Shown here: in pieces, positions 4,536 through 34,808 of the stretch
Layout: every line of letters starts with the position of its first letter
Position numbering within the stretch: the stretch's first letter is position 1
From: an uncultured bacterium
GTDB lineage: Bacteria > Fidelibacterota > Marinisomatia > SCGC-AAA003-L08 > JACNLC01
Reading direction: 5' to 3'
Assembly (NCBI GenBank): GCA_964607375.1
Contig: CAZSJY010000002.1
Location: 1-61,766, forward strand
Length of the DNA: 61,766 bases
Notes under the pieces: generated by a model
Told to the model about the DNA's origin: nothing
Database searches by the model: none
The model's input: the letters and a program-made list of their open reading frames with translations, nothing else
Translations under genes and position numbers: made by a program

Positions 4536-5249
4536 ATGAATAAAATAACTTTGATGATTAGCATTTTTGTGGTTTTGTTGAGTGGTGTATTTTCTCAAAC
4601 ATTTGAATTTCATATTGAGGACGATTTAATCCAACATATTGAAGTAGATTCCGTTGCAGCATTCGATGGTTTTGTTACAAATACTACCCAAGATATAATT
4701 CAAATAGCATTTGTTCGTACTCAGAATTACTTGCCTGAATCCTGGTCATCTACTATGTGTGTAGGTACTTCTTGTTATCCTTCTTTTATAGATTCAGTTG
4801 CAGTATCATTTAATCCAGGAGAAAGTAAGGATTTTATAGTGGATATTATTGCTTATAGCATTGAGGGAACTGCAAATGTTCAGGTTGCAATTTTTGATTT
4901 AGCGTTTCCCGATGACAAAATCATAACCGATTATCAGGCGACAACAGATCCATTGGACAACCACTACGAATTGGAAATTTCGAATTATGAATTGATGCAG
5001 TGTTATCCGAACCCCTTTAATCCACAAACAACAATTAGTTATCAACTCCCTGCTCCAAGCTCCGTGTTCATTACTATTTATAACATTAATGGACAGCTTG
5101 TTGAGGAGTTAGTAGGCAGTAGTACTGTGCAGGAAGCAGGTTCTCATTTTGTTGTTTGGAATGCGGGACAGCATCCAAGTGGAATATATTTTGGAAAACT
5201 ACAAGCAAATGGTTTTACTTTAACACAGAAATTGTCATTATTGAAATAG
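4536..5249 (+). CDS. Hypothetical secreted protein with a T9SS C-terminal sorting domain
   Basis: It has an N-terminal signal peptide. Its CTD (YPNPFNPQTTISYQLPAPSSVFITIYN...SGIYFGKL) closely parallels the CTD of the first gene. Confidence 0.65.
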   Translation: MNKITLMISIFVVLLSGVFSQTFEFHIEDDLIQHIEVDSVAAFDGFVTNTTQDIIQIAFVRTQNYLPESWSSTMCVGTSCYPSFIDSVAVSFNPGESKDFIVDIIAYSIEGTANVQVAIFDLAFPDDKIITDYQATTDPLDNHYELEISNYELMQCYPNPFNPQTTISYQLPAPSSVFITIYNINGQLVEELVGSSTVQEAGSHFVVWNAGQHPSGIYFGKLQANGFTLTQKLSLLK

Positions 5250-5275
5250 TAGCAATTTATGACTAAAATCCAATT

Positions 5276-5307
5276 AAAGAGCTTCGTTTTACTTCGGAGC
5301 TCTTTTT
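5276..5307 (+). terminator. Rho-independent terminator
   Basis: An 11-bp stem (AAAGAGCTTCG/CGGAGCTCTTT, including one G-U pair) is followed by a T-run. Confidence 0.75.
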
Positions 5308-5318
5308 AATTTATACCA

Positions 5319-5798
5319 ATGATACTAACCGAAGAACAGAAAATATACGGAATGCAATTAGCAATTCGAGAAGCAAACATAGCCCTAAAGGAAGATGAAA
5401 TTCCAATAGGATCTGTTGTTATCAAAAATGGCCAAGTAATTGGTCGAGGTTACAATCAACGCGAACAACTCAAAGATCCAACTGCACACGCAGAAATGAT
5501 TGCGTTGACTTCCGCCTCCAATACTATAGGAAATTGGAGATTAACGGATTGTGAATTGTATGTGACAAAAGAACCTTGCCCAATGTGTGCCGGTGCAATT
5601 ATGAATGCACGGATTTCCTTTGTAGGATTTGGAGTTTATGATGATCAAGCTGGATGTTGTGGATCTTTATATCAATTGTGCAGAGAACCCCGTTTTAATC
5701 ATCAATCAATTGTCCAAGGAGGAATTCTAGAAGATGAGTGCAGGGAATTATTGAATCGATTTTTTGAGAAAAGAAGAAATCAAGAAAATGAAATGTAG
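5319..5798 (+). CDS. tadA: tRNA-specific adenosine deaminase
   Basis: CDA zinc motifs HAEMIAL and PCPMCAGA are present. Size (159 aa) fits. Confidence 0.85.
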   Translation: MILTEEQKIYGMQLAIREANIALKEDEIPIGSVVIKNGQVIGRGYNQREQLKDPTAHAEMIALTSASNTIGNWRLTDCELYVTKEPCPMCAGAIMNARISFVGFGVYDDQAGCCGSLYQLCREPRFNHQSIVQGGILEDECRELLNRFFEKRRNQENEM

Positions 5799-30204: not shown

Positions 30205-31764
30205 ATGATAAATAAAAATAATTTCCTTTTCGTTGTAATAGTATTTTCATTGGTGTTACTCTGTTATATAAATACTTACCCTAAAGATGTAAGAAAAAAT
30301 CTGATAAAAGCTAAAGGCAATAGATCGGAATTATTGAACGCAATTCACTATTTTAAAAGCAAAGGAGATTCTATGCAACTCGATGCTTTGTATTATCTGA
30401 TTAGAAATATGGAAGATCATTGTTATTCAGAATTTTGTTTATTTGATTCAACCAATACCGAAGTACAGTTTAATGTTTTAGATTATGAGAATTATGATTC
30501 TATTATTGTCGGAATTGATGAGATTGAATCTAAGCAAGGGGAATTACACTATGGACGCAAACAACTTGTTTCTGATTTAGAAACGATTACTTGTGATCTA
30601 CTTGTTGAAAATATCGAATTAGCATTTAAGTCTTGGAATGAAAATCCCTGGTCATCTAAAATATCTTATGATGTATTCAAAGAATATATTTTACCCTATC
30701 GAGGTAGTAATGAACCCATTGAACATTGGCGGAATGAGTTAGTTAGTAAATTTTCTGAATTAAAAAATGATGTACTTGATTCTACAAATCTGATAGAGGT
30801 TGCTAAGTTTATAAATAAAGATATCAAATCCTGGTTTACATTCGACCCACGATTTTATTTGCATCCTACAGATCAAGGTTACGCTGAGATGTGCAAAACT
30901 GGTTTAGGGCGATGTGAGGATATGACGAATTTAGCTATCTATGCGATGAGAGCGAACGCAGTACCCGTGACTAGTGATTACACCCCTCATTGGGCAGATA
31001 CTGGTAACAATCACGCTTGGAATGCAATTTTAACACCAAATGGTGAAGCAATACCATTTATGGGTTGTGAGAGTGATCCAACTGATTATACTCTACGAAA
31101 CAAAATGGCGAAAGCTTATCGCAAAACTTTTTCAAAACAATACGATAATCTTGCGTTTAAATTGAAAGATTGGGAAAAAGCTCCAGGTTGGTTATCAGGT
31201 AAATACTATATTGATGTTACAAAACAATATACAGAAGTTGCGGATGTCAAAATTGAATTATCAGAATTTCCTGATAGTGTAAGATTTGCATACCTTTGTG
31301 TTTTTAACTCTGGTGATTGGAAAGCTATTCATTGGTCTGAGATTAAGAATAAATCAGCTGTTTTCACTGATATGGGTATAGGTATAGTTTATCTACCAAT
31401 GTTTTATATTGAAGAGGAATTAGTACCCTGTGAAGTTCCATTTATTCTCAAAAAAGACGGTTCAATCAGAGAATTGTATGAAGTAGATGATAATCTTACC
31501 ACAGTTAAACTTATCTCTACAACAAAAACAACTATTGAAGATGCAACGGAAGGAAAGATAATTACATTTTTAGAAAATGGCGTAGATTATGAATTTTTCT
31601 ATTGGGATGATGAGTGGAAACAAATTGGAACAAAAACTGCAAGTGATGAACCTTTGAGTTTTTCAGATGTCCCATCTAAGTGTTTATATTGGCTTGTTAA
31701 AAAAGATTCAAGAAAAGAAGAGCGAATTTTCACTCTGAAAAATGGGAATCAAATTTGGTGGTAG
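30205..31764 (+). CDS. Transglutaminase-like cysteine protease-fold protein, membrane-anchored
   Basis: It has an N-terminal TM helix. The core reads GLGRCEDMTNLAIYAMRANAVPV...HAWN. Confidence 0.6.
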   Translation: MINKNNFLFVVIVFSLVLLCYINTYPKDVRKNLIKAKGNRSELLNAIHYFKSKGDSMQLDALYYLIRNMEDHCYSEFCLFDSTNTEVQFNVLDYENYDSIIVGIDEIESKQGELHYGRKQLVSDLETITCDLLVENIELAFKSWNENPWSSKISYDVFKEYILPYRGSNEPIEHWRNELVSKFSELKNDVLDSTNLIEVAKFINKDIKSWFTFDPRFYLHPTDQGYAEMCKTGLGRCEDMTNLAIYAMRANAVPVTSDYTPHWADTGNNHAWNAILTPNGEAIPFMGCESDPTDYTLRNKMAKAYRKTFSKQYDNLAFKLKDWEKAPGWLSGKYYIDVTKQYTEVADVKIELSEFPDSVRFAYLCVFNSGDWKAIHWSEIKNKSAVFTDMGIGIVYLPMFYIEEELVPCEVPFILKKDGSIRELYEVDDNLTTVKLISTTKTTIEDATEGKIITFLENGVDYEFFYWDDEWKQIGTKTASDEPLSFSDVPSKCLYWLVKKDSRKEERIFTLKNGNQIWW

Positions 31765-32212
31765 TTTCAGAGTGAAGATAGTTTCACCAAAGACTAAGCT
31801 ACAATTTGAAGAATATTATGATCTTAGATGGAGAATTCTCAGAAAACCTTTGAAACAACCTCGTGGTAGTGAAATTGATGATGATGAATCTAAGTGTATT
31901 CATCGAATGATTGTAGATGAAAATGGTAATGTTATTGGAATCGGTAGATTACAATTCAATTCAAAAACTGAGGCTCAAATCAGATGGATGGCAATTGAAG
32001 AGAAATTTCAAAATATTAGTTTGGGCACAAAATTAATAAGGGATTTAGAGACAATAGCTAAGGAAAGAGGAGCGAAAACAATGGTCTTACAAGCTCGTGA
32101 GATTGCATTAGAGTTTTACTATAAGTTAGGATATTCTTTAATAGAGAAATCGCATCTTATTTTTGATTCTGTTCAGCATTACAAACTTCAGAAAAAACTA
32201 ATTAATTGCTGA
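31742..32212 (+). CDS. GNAT family N-acetyltransferase
   Basis: The motif-A region reads IRWMAIEEKFQNISLGTKLIRDLETIAKERGAK. The start is uncertain, and GTG 31772 is an alternative. Confidence 0.7.
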   Translation: MGIKFGGSFRVKIVSPKTKLQFEEYYDLRWRILRKPLKQPRGSEIDDDESKCIHRMIVDENGNVIGIGRLQFNSKTEAQIRWMAIEEKFQNISLGTKLIRDLETIAKERGAKTMVLQAREIALEFYYKLGYSLIEKSHLIFDSVQHYKLQKKLINC

Positions 32213-32263
32213 ATGACAAATAATATCTTGCACTATTCAAGATTACTATTTAACTTACGAACG

Positions 32264-32338
32264 ATGAAATTGATGAAAATACAAACTATACATAACTGTT
32301 GTTGTTGCAGACAATCCGGGAGATCTATGCAAGAGTAG
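32264..32338 (+). CDS. Candidate cysteine leader peptide MKLMKIQTIHNCCCCRQSGRSMQE
   Basis: Four consecutive Cys codons, TGT TGT TGT TGC, lie at 32297-32308. The ORF ends 24 nt before a strong terminator upstream of cysE-cysK. The frame is also open from ATG 32213. Confidence 0.5.
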   Translation: MKLMKIQTIHNCCCCRQSGRSMQE

Positions 32339-32361
32339 GCGTATTAATCATTTATAATTCG

Positions 32362-32400
32362 AAACCCTTCATCTTGTTTAGATTGAAGGGTTTTTTATTT
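32362..32400 (+). terminator. Intrinsic terminator in the 5' leader of the DUF4395-cysE-cysK operon (attenuator terminator)
   Basis: A 13-bp stem AAACCCTTCATCT/AGATTGAAGGGTTT with one bulged T and loop TGTTT is followed by TTTTTTATTTT. It ends 1 nt before ATG 32402. Confidence 0.8.
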
Positions 32401-32401
32401 T

Positions 32402-32911
32402 ATGGAAAGAGATAGAGTGATGAAGATTAATAAATTATTAGGAAAATTGAAATCAACTAAATACCCGAAAACAGTCAATAATTATATTGTGCGTTCTAAT
32501 GCATTGTTAGTTTTAGTATTAATAACTGTATTTTTGATTACAAAATCAGTTTTTATACTAATATTTATTTGCTATGGATTTTGGATTAGAGTATTGATCG
32601 GACCAAAATTATGTTTACTTACATTTATCTCAAAAAGATTTATACTACCATTGTTTGATAATCCATCCTTGAAGCAATCCGCTTCACCAAAAAGATTTGC
32701 ACAAGGGATTGGTACATTTCTAACAACGATTTCTTTAGGTATTCATTCTTTTGGATACTTACCACTGGCGAATGTAATTATATTGATTTTATTATTTTTT
32801 GTTTTTCTTGAATCAACAATAGGATTCTGCGCAGGATGCTGGACATATAATCAACTTGTAAAGTTAAATGCTATAAGAAGTGAATTTTGTGGAGATTGTA
32901 ACAAAGCTTAA
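32402..32911 (+). CDS. DUF4395 family membrane protein
   Basis: The segments FAQGIGTFLTT and ESTIGFCAGCWTY are typical of DUF4395. Confidence 0.6.
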   Translation: MERDRVMKINKLLGKLKSTKYPKTVNNYIVRSNALLVLVLITVFLITKSVFILIFICYGFWIRVLIGPKLCLLTFISKRFILPLFDNPSLKQSASPKRFAQGIGTFLTTISLGIHSFGYLPLANVIILILLFFVFLESTIGFCAGCWTYNQLVKLNAIRSEFCGDCNKA

Positions 32912-33003: not shown

Positions 33004-33888
33004 ATGAAACACCATAAAAACAAAACACTAGTTGCGAAAAGACTATTAAAATCTTACTCAATGGATGAAATTCCATTTTTGTTAGATACTGATGTTAATT
33101 TCCCAAAACGAGAACCTCGTTTTACTGAGTTAGAGTTTCTAAAAGAACTTCTTTTCCCAAATTACTGGAACTGTGGATATTTGAGTATCATCCAAAATCA
33201 ATCTGAACTTGAAAGTAAGCTGAACGAATTTGGGTCTTCATTATGTTTGGGATTAAATCCATATATAAACGATGATAACAAAGTAACTTCTATAATTAAT
33301 AACGTTCTCAATACACTTCCAGATATTAGAGAAAAATTGAAGAAAGATATTCAAGCGGCTTACAATGGGGATCCTTCAGCAACTAGTTATACTGAAATCA
33401 TCCGTTCTTATCCAACAACTTGTGCAGTTATGGTGCAGAGATTCACTCATCAGATCTATAAAAATGGAGCTCCATCTTATGCAAGAGAATTAAATGAACA
33501 TATACATAAAATGACAGGTATTGATATCCATTCAGGTGCTGAAATTGGAGATTACTTTTTTATTGATCACGGAACTGGTGTTGTAATTGGTGAATCTTGT
33601 ATTATTGGTGATCATGTTCGTCTCTATCAGGGAGTAACTTTGGGTGCTCTCCACTTCGAGAAAGAAGAGAATGAGACTGAAATACTCAAGAAAGGGTATA
33701 AACGACATCCAAACATAGGAAATCATGTCGTTATTGGAGCAGGATCAAAAATATTAGGTCCTGTAAGAATCGGTAATAATGTCAATATTGGTGCAAATTC
33801 TTGGATTGAAGAAGATATTCCAGATCATACTGTAGTATTCATTTCAGAACATCCTAAACTCATAAAGAAAAAACGGACAAACAAGTGA
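33004..33888 (+). CDS. cysE: Serine O-acetyltransferase
   Basis: The left-handed beta-helix hexapeptide region reads IHSGAEIGDYFFIDHGTGVVIGESCIIGDHVRLYQGVTLG...IGAGSKILG. Confidence 0.85.
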   Translation: MKHHKNKTLVAKRLLKSYSMDEIPFLLDTDVNFPKREPRFTELEFLKELLFPNYWNCGYLSIIQNQSELESKLNEFGSSLCLGLNPYINDDNKVTSIINNVLNTLPDIREKLKKDIQAAYNGDPSATSYTEIIRSYPTTCAVMVQRFTHQIYKNGAPSYARELNEHIHKMTGIDIHSGAEIGDYFFIDHGTGVVIGESCIIGDHVRLYQGVTLGALHFEKEENETEILKKGYKRHPNIGNHVVIGAGSKILGPVRIGNNVNIGANSWIEEDIPDHTVVFISEHPKLIKKKRTNK

Positions 33889-34808
33889 AGAAATACAATA
33901 ACATTACGGACTTAGTTGGGAATACACCGATAGTTAAATTGAGGAAAGTTGCAGAAGATTGTTTGGGAAGTATTTGGGGAAAACTTGAATCGTTTAATCC
34001 AATGAGTAGTGTAAAAGACCGCATTGGCTTAAGCATGATTTTGGATGCTGAAGAAAAAGGATTTATTGAACCAGGCGATACGATTATTGAACCAACTTCA
34101 GGAAATACAGGTATAGCTTTGGCTTATATATCTGCACAAAAAGGATATACTTTGATTTTGACAATGCCTGAAACAGTATCAAAGGAAAGAGTAGCGATTC
34201 TGAAGGCGTTTGGTGCTGAAGTAATTCTGATAAAACCAGAAGCTGGTCCTGGAATGACTGGAGCAATTGCAAAAGCTGAAGAATTACAAGAAAAGCATGG
34301 TTATTTTATGCCTATGCAGTTTTCAAATCCTGCAAATCCAGAAATTCATAGAAAAACCACTGGTCCTGAAATTGTCGAAGCTTTTAAGGAAATAGGACTG
34401 GATTATTTTGTAGCAGGAATTGGAACTGGTGGAACAATTACTGGTGTTGGGGAAGTTTTACGCAAACATTTTCCGAACATTAATATTATTGCAGTTGAAC
34501 CAAAGAAATCTCCATTGTTAACAGGAGGTTCACCTGGAAAACATACTATTCAAGGAATCGGTGCTGGTTTCATACCAGAAATATTGGATACATCTATCTA
34601 CGACACAGTAATTAAAGTTGATGATGAAGATGCAAAATCAACAACTCAATTGATTGCTAAAACCGAGGGAATATTTGCCGGTATATCAACAGGGGCTGCC
34701 GTGTGGTCTGCTACACAAGTTGCTAAGAGAATGAAGAAAAATGAAAATCTATTAGTTGTTTGCCCTGACACAGGTGAACGATACATAAGTACTGGATTAT
34801 TTGAGTGA
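33885..34808 (+). CDS. cysK: Cysteine synthase A (O-acetylserine sulfhydrylase)
   Basis: The PLP lysine motif NPMSSVKDR and the motifs TSGNTGIALA and GIGTGGTITG are present. Confidence 0.9.
   Translation: MKKYNNITDLVGNTPIVKLRKVAEDCLGSIWGKLESFNPMSSVKDRIGLSMILDAEEKGFIEPGDTIIEPTSGNTGIALAYISAQKGYTLILTMPETVSKERVAILKAFGAEVILIKPEAGPGMTGAIAKAEELQEKHGYFMPMQFSNPANPEIHRKTTGPEIVEAFKEIGLDYFVAGIGTGGTITGVGEVLRKHFPNINIIAVEPKKSPLLTGGSPGKHTIQGIGAGFIPEILDTSIYDTVIKVDDEDAKSTTQLIAKTEGIFAGISTGAAVWSATQVAKRMKKNENLLVVCPDTGERYISTGLFE

Follow-up and report, generated by a model that had tools for sequence, protein, structure and literature searches.

A candidate cysteine-responsive leader-peptide attenuator upstream of a DUF4395-cysE-cysK operon in Marinimicrobia

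Classical leader-peptide attenuators are found at the enterobacterial trp, his, leu, thr and pheA operons, and the leu leader carries four consecutive Leu codons followed by more codons. Marinimicrobia (SAR406) is an abundant uncultured phylum of the ocean and of oxygen-minimum zones, and to our knowledge its gene regulation is essentially unknown. Here we describe an element in a 61,766-nucleotide (nt) stretch of DNA from an uncultured member of this phylum (the window; assembly GCA_964607375.1, contig CAZSJY010000002.1; 33% G+C), in which a short open reading frame (sORF) with a run of Cys codons and an intrinsic terminator precede a DUF4395-cysE-cysK operon. From the sequence and its relatives we put at roughly 0.8 the probability that these features form a Cys-responsive leader-peptide attenuator that acts on termination and controls the operon.

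An initial annotation of the window had proposed such an attenuator and called it unusual for its lineage. That was overstated, since leader ORFs that sense Cys have been described or predicted before, in Actinobacteria, Rhodobacterales and Deinococcus, though not in Marinimicrobia. Candidate Cys leader peptides that lack a terminator have been predicted for Mycobacterium, Propionibacterium and Bifidobacterium (PMC1262725), and a Cys sORF of M. smegmatis was shown experimentally to act translationally, by exposing the next gene's ribosome-binding site (Canestrari et al. 2020, 10.1101/834739). The uORFC-8-2 motif upstream of cysS in Rhodobacterales is a predicted attenuator with tandem Cys codons, a terminator stem and a U-run (PMC8632094). 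For cysS of Deinococcus deserti, a leaderless leader peptide with Cys codons was predicted, its start codon coinciding with the transcription start (PMC4007540).

A polycysteine sORF and a terminator ahead of cysteine genes

The element occupies a gap of 189 nt that separates a GNAT acetyltransferase gene from the DUF4395-cysE-cysK string (Pfam). Its parts are as follows:

32226-32258, + strand: promoter-like block, made up of TCTTGCAC (TTG at 32228-32230), a 20-nt spacer and TAACTTAC (32251-32258)
32264-32338, + strand: leader sORF of 24 codons plus stop, MKLMKIQTIHNCCCCRQSGRSMQE, with ATG at 32264 and the stop codon TAG at 32336-32338
32297-32308, + strand: run of four Cys codons (TGT TGT TGT TGC), where ribosomes would presumably stall
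32361-32401, + strand: intrinsic terminator, with 5' arm 32361-32374, loop, 3' arm 32380-32394 and U-tract 32391-32401

The positions of the sORF and of its Cys codons agree with those first read from the sequence. Chance is excluded as the source of the Cys run: runs of at least four TGY codons occurred 0.06 times per composition-shuffled window with both strands counted, which puts the expected number of runs of at least four Cys codons at 0.0002 for the 189-nt gap and at 0.005 for the 5 kb of intergenic DNA as a whole. No other Cys-run ORF of the window is intergenic; several other frames have at least three Cys codons, and each of these is found within a long ORF and out of frame with it. 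The gap thereby has end-product codons in a run upstream of an operon of the same pathway. The frame is also open from an ATG at 32213, which had been noted as a possible longer leader. We rejected this extension: it is not conserved, the closest relative (locus L087, described below) having a stop in frame 10 codons before its ATG, and it would traverse the conserved promoter-like block.

Folded in isolation, the hairpin at 32361-32394 has an energy of -15.9 kcal/mol (RNAfold). It consists of 14 pairs, including one G-U closing pair, plus one bulged U, and runs into the U-tract TTTTTTATTTT at 32391-32401. The earlier description of a strong hairpin with a U-tract is therefore confirmed, with the 13-bp stem corrected to 14 pairs and a bulge; its base lies 22 nt past the stop codon. 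Because of the bulge, a simple consensus terminator scan did not detect this hairpin. A custom scan for an A-tract, GC stem and U-tract across + strand intergenic DNA of the window found three clean terminators only, with U-tracts beginning at 2462, 5303 and 32391. The other two (AAACCCCUUAG...CUGAGGGGUUUUU and AAAGAGCUUCG...CGGAGCUCUUUUU) lie ~20-25 nt past the end of a gene. Canonical intrinsic terminators are present at real gene ends of this genome, and the lineage evidently uses hairpin-plus-U terminators sparingly.

These positions bear on a simpler explanation, in which the hairpin only ends transcription of the GNAT operon before it and the ORF with the Cys run arose by chance. GNAT is the final gene of a tightly packed + strand string with no other terminator before 32361, and the hairpin may well also stop readthrough from it. 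Yet the hairpin stands ~150 nt past the GNAT stop codon, beyond the sORF, as against ~20-25 nt for the window's other two terminators, and the Cys run has the chance expectation of 0.0002 given above. In addition, the sORF and hairpin are kept together with downstream cysteine operons behind four different upstream genes, encoding GNAT, 4HBT, zinc alcohol dehydrogenase (Zn-ADH) or OsmC proteins. The element therefore belongs with the cysteine genes that follow it, and the hairpin is more than a GNAT terminator; the initial annotation had named a hairpin that only terminates GNAT as a refutation of its proposal. This explanation, already disfavoured, is barely credible.

The genes on either side of the gap are the following:

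31742-32212, + strand: GNAT acetyltransferase gene, the upstream neighbour of the gap
32420-32911, + strand: DUF4395 membrane protein, first operon gene (Pfam PF14340, E = 5e-29), in an ORF open from 32402
33004-33888, + strand: cysE, serine O-acetyltransferase (Pfam Hexapep and SATase_N; L087 orthologue 81% identical)
33885-34808, + strand: cysK, O-acetylserine sulfhydrylase / cysteine synthase A (Pfam PALP, E = 2e-75)

The cysK product shares 80% identity with a protein recorded at NCBI as 'cysteine synthase A [Candidatus Marinimicrobia bacterium]'. The operon had been taken to start 1 nt past the terminator. Most likely DUF4395 begins at ATG 32420 and not at 32402, because the database copy P0001 begins there and the L087 orthologue aligns there, and ~18 nt would then lie between the U-tract and the start codon.

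Conservation of spacing across two kinds of cysteine operon

Relatives were sampled around cysteine genes only, and within the sampled loci of 5-12 kb intergenic Cys-run sORFs occurred at the leader position only. We compared eight distinct leaders, several of them reached through relatives of CysM: the one in the window and these seven (each sequence is followed by a stop codon):

L087: MKKLQISTFSNCCCCQQCGRSMQE, in the same gap, then AACCCTTCATCGTGTATAGATAGAAGGGTTTTTTGTTTT
L001: ends in TKTAHFTCCCCCCMFGGGDLPR; with a terminator, upstream of a cysM-type operon
L007: ends in DHSCCCCCSMFGGGDLPR
L113: ends in YNSRLCCCCFYGGGNLPA
L114: MKKNYSNQLVDLQVSSLCCCCCCIVGGGPLPV
L130: MKQNFSNQLVNSQASNLCCCCCCILGGGPLPV
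L126: MKSFVNITLNPAACCCCCTNYVTTVPV

The eight leaders fall in at least three unrelated sequence families and precede two cysteine operons, DUF4395-cysE-cysK and cysM-mec-ThiS/ThiF/rhodanese, with six of them at the latter. L087 is syntenic with the window, having a transglutaminase-like gene, GNAT, the gap, DUF4395, cysE and cysK in the same order; the leaders of L094-L097 are identical to that of L087. Outside this species, the nearest DUF4395 homologue is 44% identical and stands at the end of a different cysteine operon (L001), which encodes a CysM-like PALP enzyme, a JAB/Mec-like protein, a ThiS-ThiF-rhodanese fusion and DUF4395. We take this operon to represent the protein-thiocarboxylate route known from M. 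tuberculosis. A search of relatives for Cys-run ORFs, suggested with the initial annotation, thus found one in L087 (81% CysE identity) and six at another cysteine operon. The arrangement is conserved and linked to the cysteine pathway, which supports the original idea of a Cys-codon leader ORF and terminator serving as a cysteine attenuator of the operon.

What the families share is spacing. The Cys run has 4-6 codons, and from its end to the stop codon there are exactly 27 nt (9 codons) in 8/8 leaders; the count for L007 includes a Ser that replaces the sixth Cys, with the register kept. An intrinsic terminator stands between leader ORF and first structural gene in the window and in all of the others. 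Its base lies 17-24 nt beyond the stop codon (22 nt in the window, L001, L007 and L113), its energy ranges from -12 to -20 kcal/mol, and each copy has a U-tract; in L087 it is kept in the same register, bulge included. The nine codons past the run are unrelated between families (RQSGRSMQE, MFGGGDLPR and TNYVTTVPV), and the constraint is therefore on distance and not on peptide. These unrelated peptides, the varying number of Cys codons and the one Cys-to-Ser change point to selection acting on codons rather than on a folded peptide.

The same comparison speaks to whether the sORF might encode a functional Cys-rich micropeptide, for example a metal- or sulfur-binding one, that sits beside cysteine genes while the hairpin merely ends its transcript. 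Identity of the C-terminal GRSMQE in the window and L087 and the GGGxLP motif common to leaders of the L001 family would suit such a product. Against it, these stretches are also conserved as nucleotides and are located in the pairing segments described below, only the Cys run and the spacings are common between families, and the number of Cys residues varies from 4 to 6. A hairpin that only ended the sORF transcript would also leave the operon unexpressed, no second promoter being evident in the ~18-60 nt before the first gene. We regard a micropeptide as improbable.

Conservation extends to the promoter-like block, which ends 5 nt before the sORF ATG in the window. In 8/8 leaders a TTG, usually as TCTTG, is found 36-38 nt before the sORF start codon, followed after a spacer of 20-21 nt by TAnnTT(T)(G/T), which ends 5-6 nt before that codon. 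The Bacteroidetes promoter, with -33 TTTG and -7 TAnnTTTG, has this geometry. We infer that the block acts as a promoter and that transcription would start at or beside the sORF start codon, making the sORF leaderless. A start codon kept at a set distance from the block also lends indirect support to translation of the sORF.

Alternative RNA structures and a proposed mechanism

Two segments upstream of the terminator could form alternative helices in the window:

32271-32290, + strand: segment 1, in the 5' part of the sORF, a candidate 'protector' helix with segment 2 (duplex -8.5 kcal/mol)
32328-32353, + strand: segment 2, overlapping the stop codon; 32334-32353 can pair with segment 1, and 32328-32343 is the candidate antiterminator strand

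The mechanism that we favor would run as follows. A promoter just upstream of the sORF would place the start codon at, or a few nt from, the 5' end of the transcript. When cysteine is ample, the ribosome would pass the four Cys codons, reach the stop codon at 32336-32338 and cover segment 2; the hairpin and U-tract (32361-32401) would form, and transcription would halt before the operon. When Cys-tRNA is scarce, the ribosome would stall at 32297-32308 and cover or destabilize segment 1, with its leading edge upstream of ~32323. Segment 2 (32328-32343) would then be available for pairing with the 5' arm of the terminator, which would let RNA polymerase read through. If the sORF were not translated, the 1:2 and 3:4 helices would both form and transcription would terminate. 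The 27-nt distance would fit ribosome footprint logic: a ribosome with a Cys codon in its A site would reach ~13-15 nt downstream and leave the stop region free, while one at the stop codon would cover that region.

The candidate antiterminator pairs 32328-32343 (UGCAAGAGUAGGCGUA, which includes the stop codon) with 32363-32378. Within the window no strand pairs better than this one with the terminator 5' arm, at -8.6 to -10.9 kcal/mol, the stronger value being that of an extended duplex. The strand GCAAGAGUAGG, previously proposed for this role, is thereby retained as the top-scoring partner (-8.6, extended -10.9 kcal/mol), although it performs no better than shuffled sequences and is weakened in L087 by a U-to-G change. 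Stop-overlapping partners of the terminator arm with similar strength are present in L001 and L007 (-8.9 and -13.2 kcal/mol) and in L126 (-10.0 kcal/mol). Clear antiterminators were found in L114 and L130 only, where CUUCCUC in the terminator arm pairs with GGAGGAGG from just past the Cys run; these duplexes are clearly non-random (-15.0 and -18.6 kcal/mol, matched by 6/500 and 3/500 shuffles). By analogy with GGAGGAGG of the L001 family, GGGAG just past the window's Cys run was tried as an antiterminator and rejected, as only GGG:CCC pairs form (-5.0 kcal/mol).

A second helix recurs, joining the 5' part of the sORF to sequence at the stop codon or just past it. It is listed here by core sequences, with energies and counts of shuffles as good that refer to the full duplexes:

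L001/L007: AAUAUUCAAAUCU with GGAUUUGAAUAUU, -19.5 kcal/mol, 0/500
L087: AAAUAUCUACUU with GAGUAGGUAUUU, -15.5 kcal/mol, 4/500
L126: AUCACCU with AGGUGAU, -15.5 kcal/mol, 30/500
L113: UAUUCAAAC with GUUUGAAUA, -16.1 kcal/mol, 16/500
L130: UCAAACCAA with UUGGUUUGA, -16.1 kcal/mol, 38/500
Window: weak, interrupted helix, -8.5 kcal/mol, 51/500

The same architecture built from different sequences in each family argues that this 1:2 helix is functional. Since it overlaps the antiterminator strand, it would serve as the segment 1:2 'protector' of the classical scheme. This better-supported segment 1 replaces the protector first suggested, a pairing of UUGCAGA at the Cys codons with UCU..GCAA: a 4-bp UGCA:UGCA helix from it does occur in the minimum free energy (MFE) structure, but the rest is missing and L087 does not retain it. 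Local pairing of the Cys codons is seen in both the window and L087 (GUUGUU with GACAAU or AGCAAU). The segment 2 block GGGAGATCTATGCAAGAGTAGG is 100% identical in L087 despite diverged flanks.

Folding with modelled ribosomes gave a divided answer. With the terminator 3' arm removed, a transcript with a stalled ribosome has the antiterminator in its MFE structure (-8.5 kcal/mol in the window), yet the terminator is retained in the MFE of the whole gap and in the full transcript under every ribosome mask tried, including a mask on the Cys codons (-21.2 kcal/mol). We rejected a purely thermodynamic switch, as equilibrium folding with ribosome masks never removed the terminator; antitermination would have to be kinetic. 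In trp, too, the terminator is the stabler helix and the choice is kinetic, so that the equilibrium result is no refutation of attenuation.

Several observations weigh against the proposed attenuator. The terminator is favored at equilibrium under every mask (-21.2 versus -8.5 kcal/mol). The antiterminator duplex of the window was matched by 61/500 shuffles (p ~0.12), and in L087 the U-to-G change reduces the same strand to -3.8 kcal/mol, the best duplex there (-8.5 kcal/mol) being matched by 211/500 shuffles. Alignment and folding of the window and L087 (MAFFT/RNAalifold) showed no compensatory changes, two sequences being too few. In the longer leaders (L001 type) ~38 nt separate segment 1 from the Cys run downstream of it, too far for a single stalled ribosome to cover, and a queued second ribosome would therefore have to be assumed. 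Intergenic DNA of the window shows no enrichment of the motif TTG-N19-21-TAnnTTT[GT], which is too simple for an AT-rich sequence; the motif is therefore unusable as independent promoter evidence, and positional conservation is what supports the block. Finally, the cysM operons of L119 and L123 have no Cys-run leader, and none stands upstream of cysE in L088-L091 (57-63% identity). On this evidence, the specific helix of 32328-32343 with 32363-32378 is a candidate that we would place somewhat below even odds.

These weaknesses suggest a variant in which the sORF senses cysteine through stalling and the output is not a classical antiterminator hairpin. The response could instead be a translational or RNA-stability effect on DUF4395, like that of the polycysteine sORFs of mycobacteria, or factor-dependent termination involving Rho or ribosome-RNA polymerase coupling. 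Apart from the statistically weak antiterminators of the window and L087 and the equilibrium preference for the terminator, this variant can draw on the complementarity of CUUCAUC (32367-32373) to GAUGAAG at the DUF4395 start, and on the Cys sORF studied experimentally, which acts translationally and has no terminator. A strong hairpin and U-tract kept at a fixed distance from the stop codon in 8/8 leaders would nonetheless be hard to explain unless termination is regulated, the 27-nt spacer matches the footprint logic of classical attenuation, and L114 and L130 have clear antiterminators. We consider the variant unlikely, and prefer an attenuator that acts through termination.

The complementarity itself deserves description. 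CUUCAUC in the terminator 5' arm (32367-32373) is perfectly complementary to GAUGAAG (32419-32425), which spans the probable DUF4395 start codon, and L087 has the counterparts CUUCAU and AUGAAG. The start region of the sORF (GAUGAA at 32272-32277; AUGAAG in L087) can also pair with the terminator 5' arm, giving a long-range antiterminator candidate of 6 bp, GAUGAA with UUCAUC, that is present in L087 as well. No RNAfold structure pairs the sORF region with the DUF4395 start region, the sole complementarity being the 7-nt match of the terminator arm to the start codon region. Such matches could be chance, or could provide a second, translational or long-range, layer of control.

Related loci and comparison with known systems

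Other loci show how the leader is distributed. The cysM-JAB-ThiF operons that lack it (L119 2240-2510 and L123 2303-2510) are Marinimicrobia-like; one of them has DUF4920 in place of DUF4395, and AA_kinase and Cys_Met_Meta_PP genes come after the other. To judge from these sequences, gain or loss of the leader has occurred within the phylum. In a metagenome scan with CysE we recovered one close relative, L087, and five at 57-63% identity (L088-L092), of which L092 has almost no upstream sequence. Before its cysE homologue (63% identity), L089 carries a SAM-I/IV riboswitch (697-813; 51 bits versus a gathering threshold of 41.1) and a terminator. The same cysE gene is thus under a different RNA sensor in another lineage. 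At L126 (GCA_900089805.1, FLOH01000047.1, 2501-5990), a Cys leader stands before an expanded operon, cysM-JAB-TusA-DsrE-ThiS/ThiF/rhodanese. The called CysM start of L126 (329 amino acids) seems too far upstream, overrunning the terminator, and translation likely begins at the ATG that follows the U-tract (ATGAGCATTTTAGAC).

DUF4395 appears in both operons. In Marinimicrobia it is the first gene of the cysE-cysK operon (window 32420-32911) and the last gene of the cysM-JAB-ThiS/ThiF/rhodanese operon (L001 4001-4519; L114, L115 and L130 ~5203-5721), and both placements sit behind a Cys leader. The protein is a membrane protein with an invariant GFCAGC...C..C motif. These contexts point to a role of the family in sulfur or cysteine metabolism, and the common leader ties DUF4395 functionally to cysteine biosynthesis. 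A standalone DUF4395 locus (L102) is without a leader. A DUF4395 profile scan of genome contigs returned mostly Actinomycetota, Chloroflexota and Leptospira, with L007 alone informative; the Cys-run frames of those contigs were all inside coding regions or high-GC antisense artefacts.

The nearest CysK relatives outside Marinimicrobia, ~70% identical and encoded in cysE-cysK pairs, lie on contigs with archaeal neighbors (RpoL-type RNA_pol_L_2 and TrmB); NCBI names P0036 (L111) and P0041 'Candidatus Woesearchaeota archaeon'. Two of these loci have poly-Cys sORFs directly upstream of cysE: MDLTKSTKSFFCCCCCNC plus stop at L107 2552-2608 (cysE at 2657; CysK copy P0054) and MVIKQQSKKNFCRCCCVCCC plus stop at L111 ~2452-2515 (cysE at 2626). 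In both, a TTTAAATA box precedes the ATG by 22-23 nt and a T6-7 tract follows the stop codon at 15-17 nt. Their leader regions fold no better than shuffles, which would fit hairpin-independent oligo-T termination in archaea. These loci may reflect leader-peptide attenuation in archaea, or an operon transferred together with its leader; if real, they raise ribosome-mediated attenuation in archaea as a question. One may imagine a Marinimicrobia 'cysteine ribulon', in which leaderless poly-Cys sORFs with a fixed ruler (27 nt from Cys run to stop, ~22 nt from stop to terminator) would gate cysE-cysK and cysM-mec-CysO-like operons independently, possibly also in archaea. We consider so broad a system rather doubtful.

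Rfam searches linked the element to no described family. At permissive thresholds the best match to the region was PyrG_leader (23.7 bits versus a gathering threshold of 65), driven by the terminator only, and at gathering thresholds ten related loci yielded no family for the Cys leaders.

The Marinimicrobia leader resembles the classical attenuators in having a short ORF with a run of end-product codons, then an intrinsic terminator before the first structural gene, and in its candidate 1:2, 2:3 and 3:4 pairings with the stop codon inside segment 2. Unlike them, it occurs in the FCB group and uses cysteine, its start codon in the window is probably at the 5' end of the transcript with no room for a Shine-Dalgarno sequence, its antiterminator in the window is weak or not demonstrable, and there is no sequence or Rfam relationship. 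It is like the polycysteine leaderless sORFs of mycobacteria (the 'Cys ribulon', 10.1101/834739) in that Cys runs in a probably leaderless sORF head cysteine-metabolism operons, and in that several operons of one pathway each have their own copy of the leader. The leaderless trait is suggested in the window by the promoter-like geometry. In contrast to the mycobacterial sORFs, which have no terminator, the Marinimicrobia leaders have a strong intrinsic terminator as a conserved output element. The uORFC-8-2 motif (PMC8632094) differs in its two Cys codons, in controlling cysteinyl-tRNA synthetase and not biosynthesis, and in its alpha-proteobacterial hosts, and shares no sequence similarity. 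The D. deserti leader (PMC4007540) differs as well, with 10 amino acids, two Cys, a tRNA synthetase gene and a mapped transcription start, which in the window is placed by prediction.

New relative to these systems are the phylum, the targeting of both cysteine-synthesis routes and the fixed 27-nt ruler, together with the combination of a probably leaderless poly-Cys sORF and a canonical terminator. The locus would thus offer a concrete regulatory element for sulfur and cysteine metabolism in Marinimicrobia, and would add the FCB group and a terminator-based output to what is known of leader ORFs that sense Cys-tRNA, with the strict 27-nt spacer as a natural ruler for ribosome-footprint logic in attenuation.

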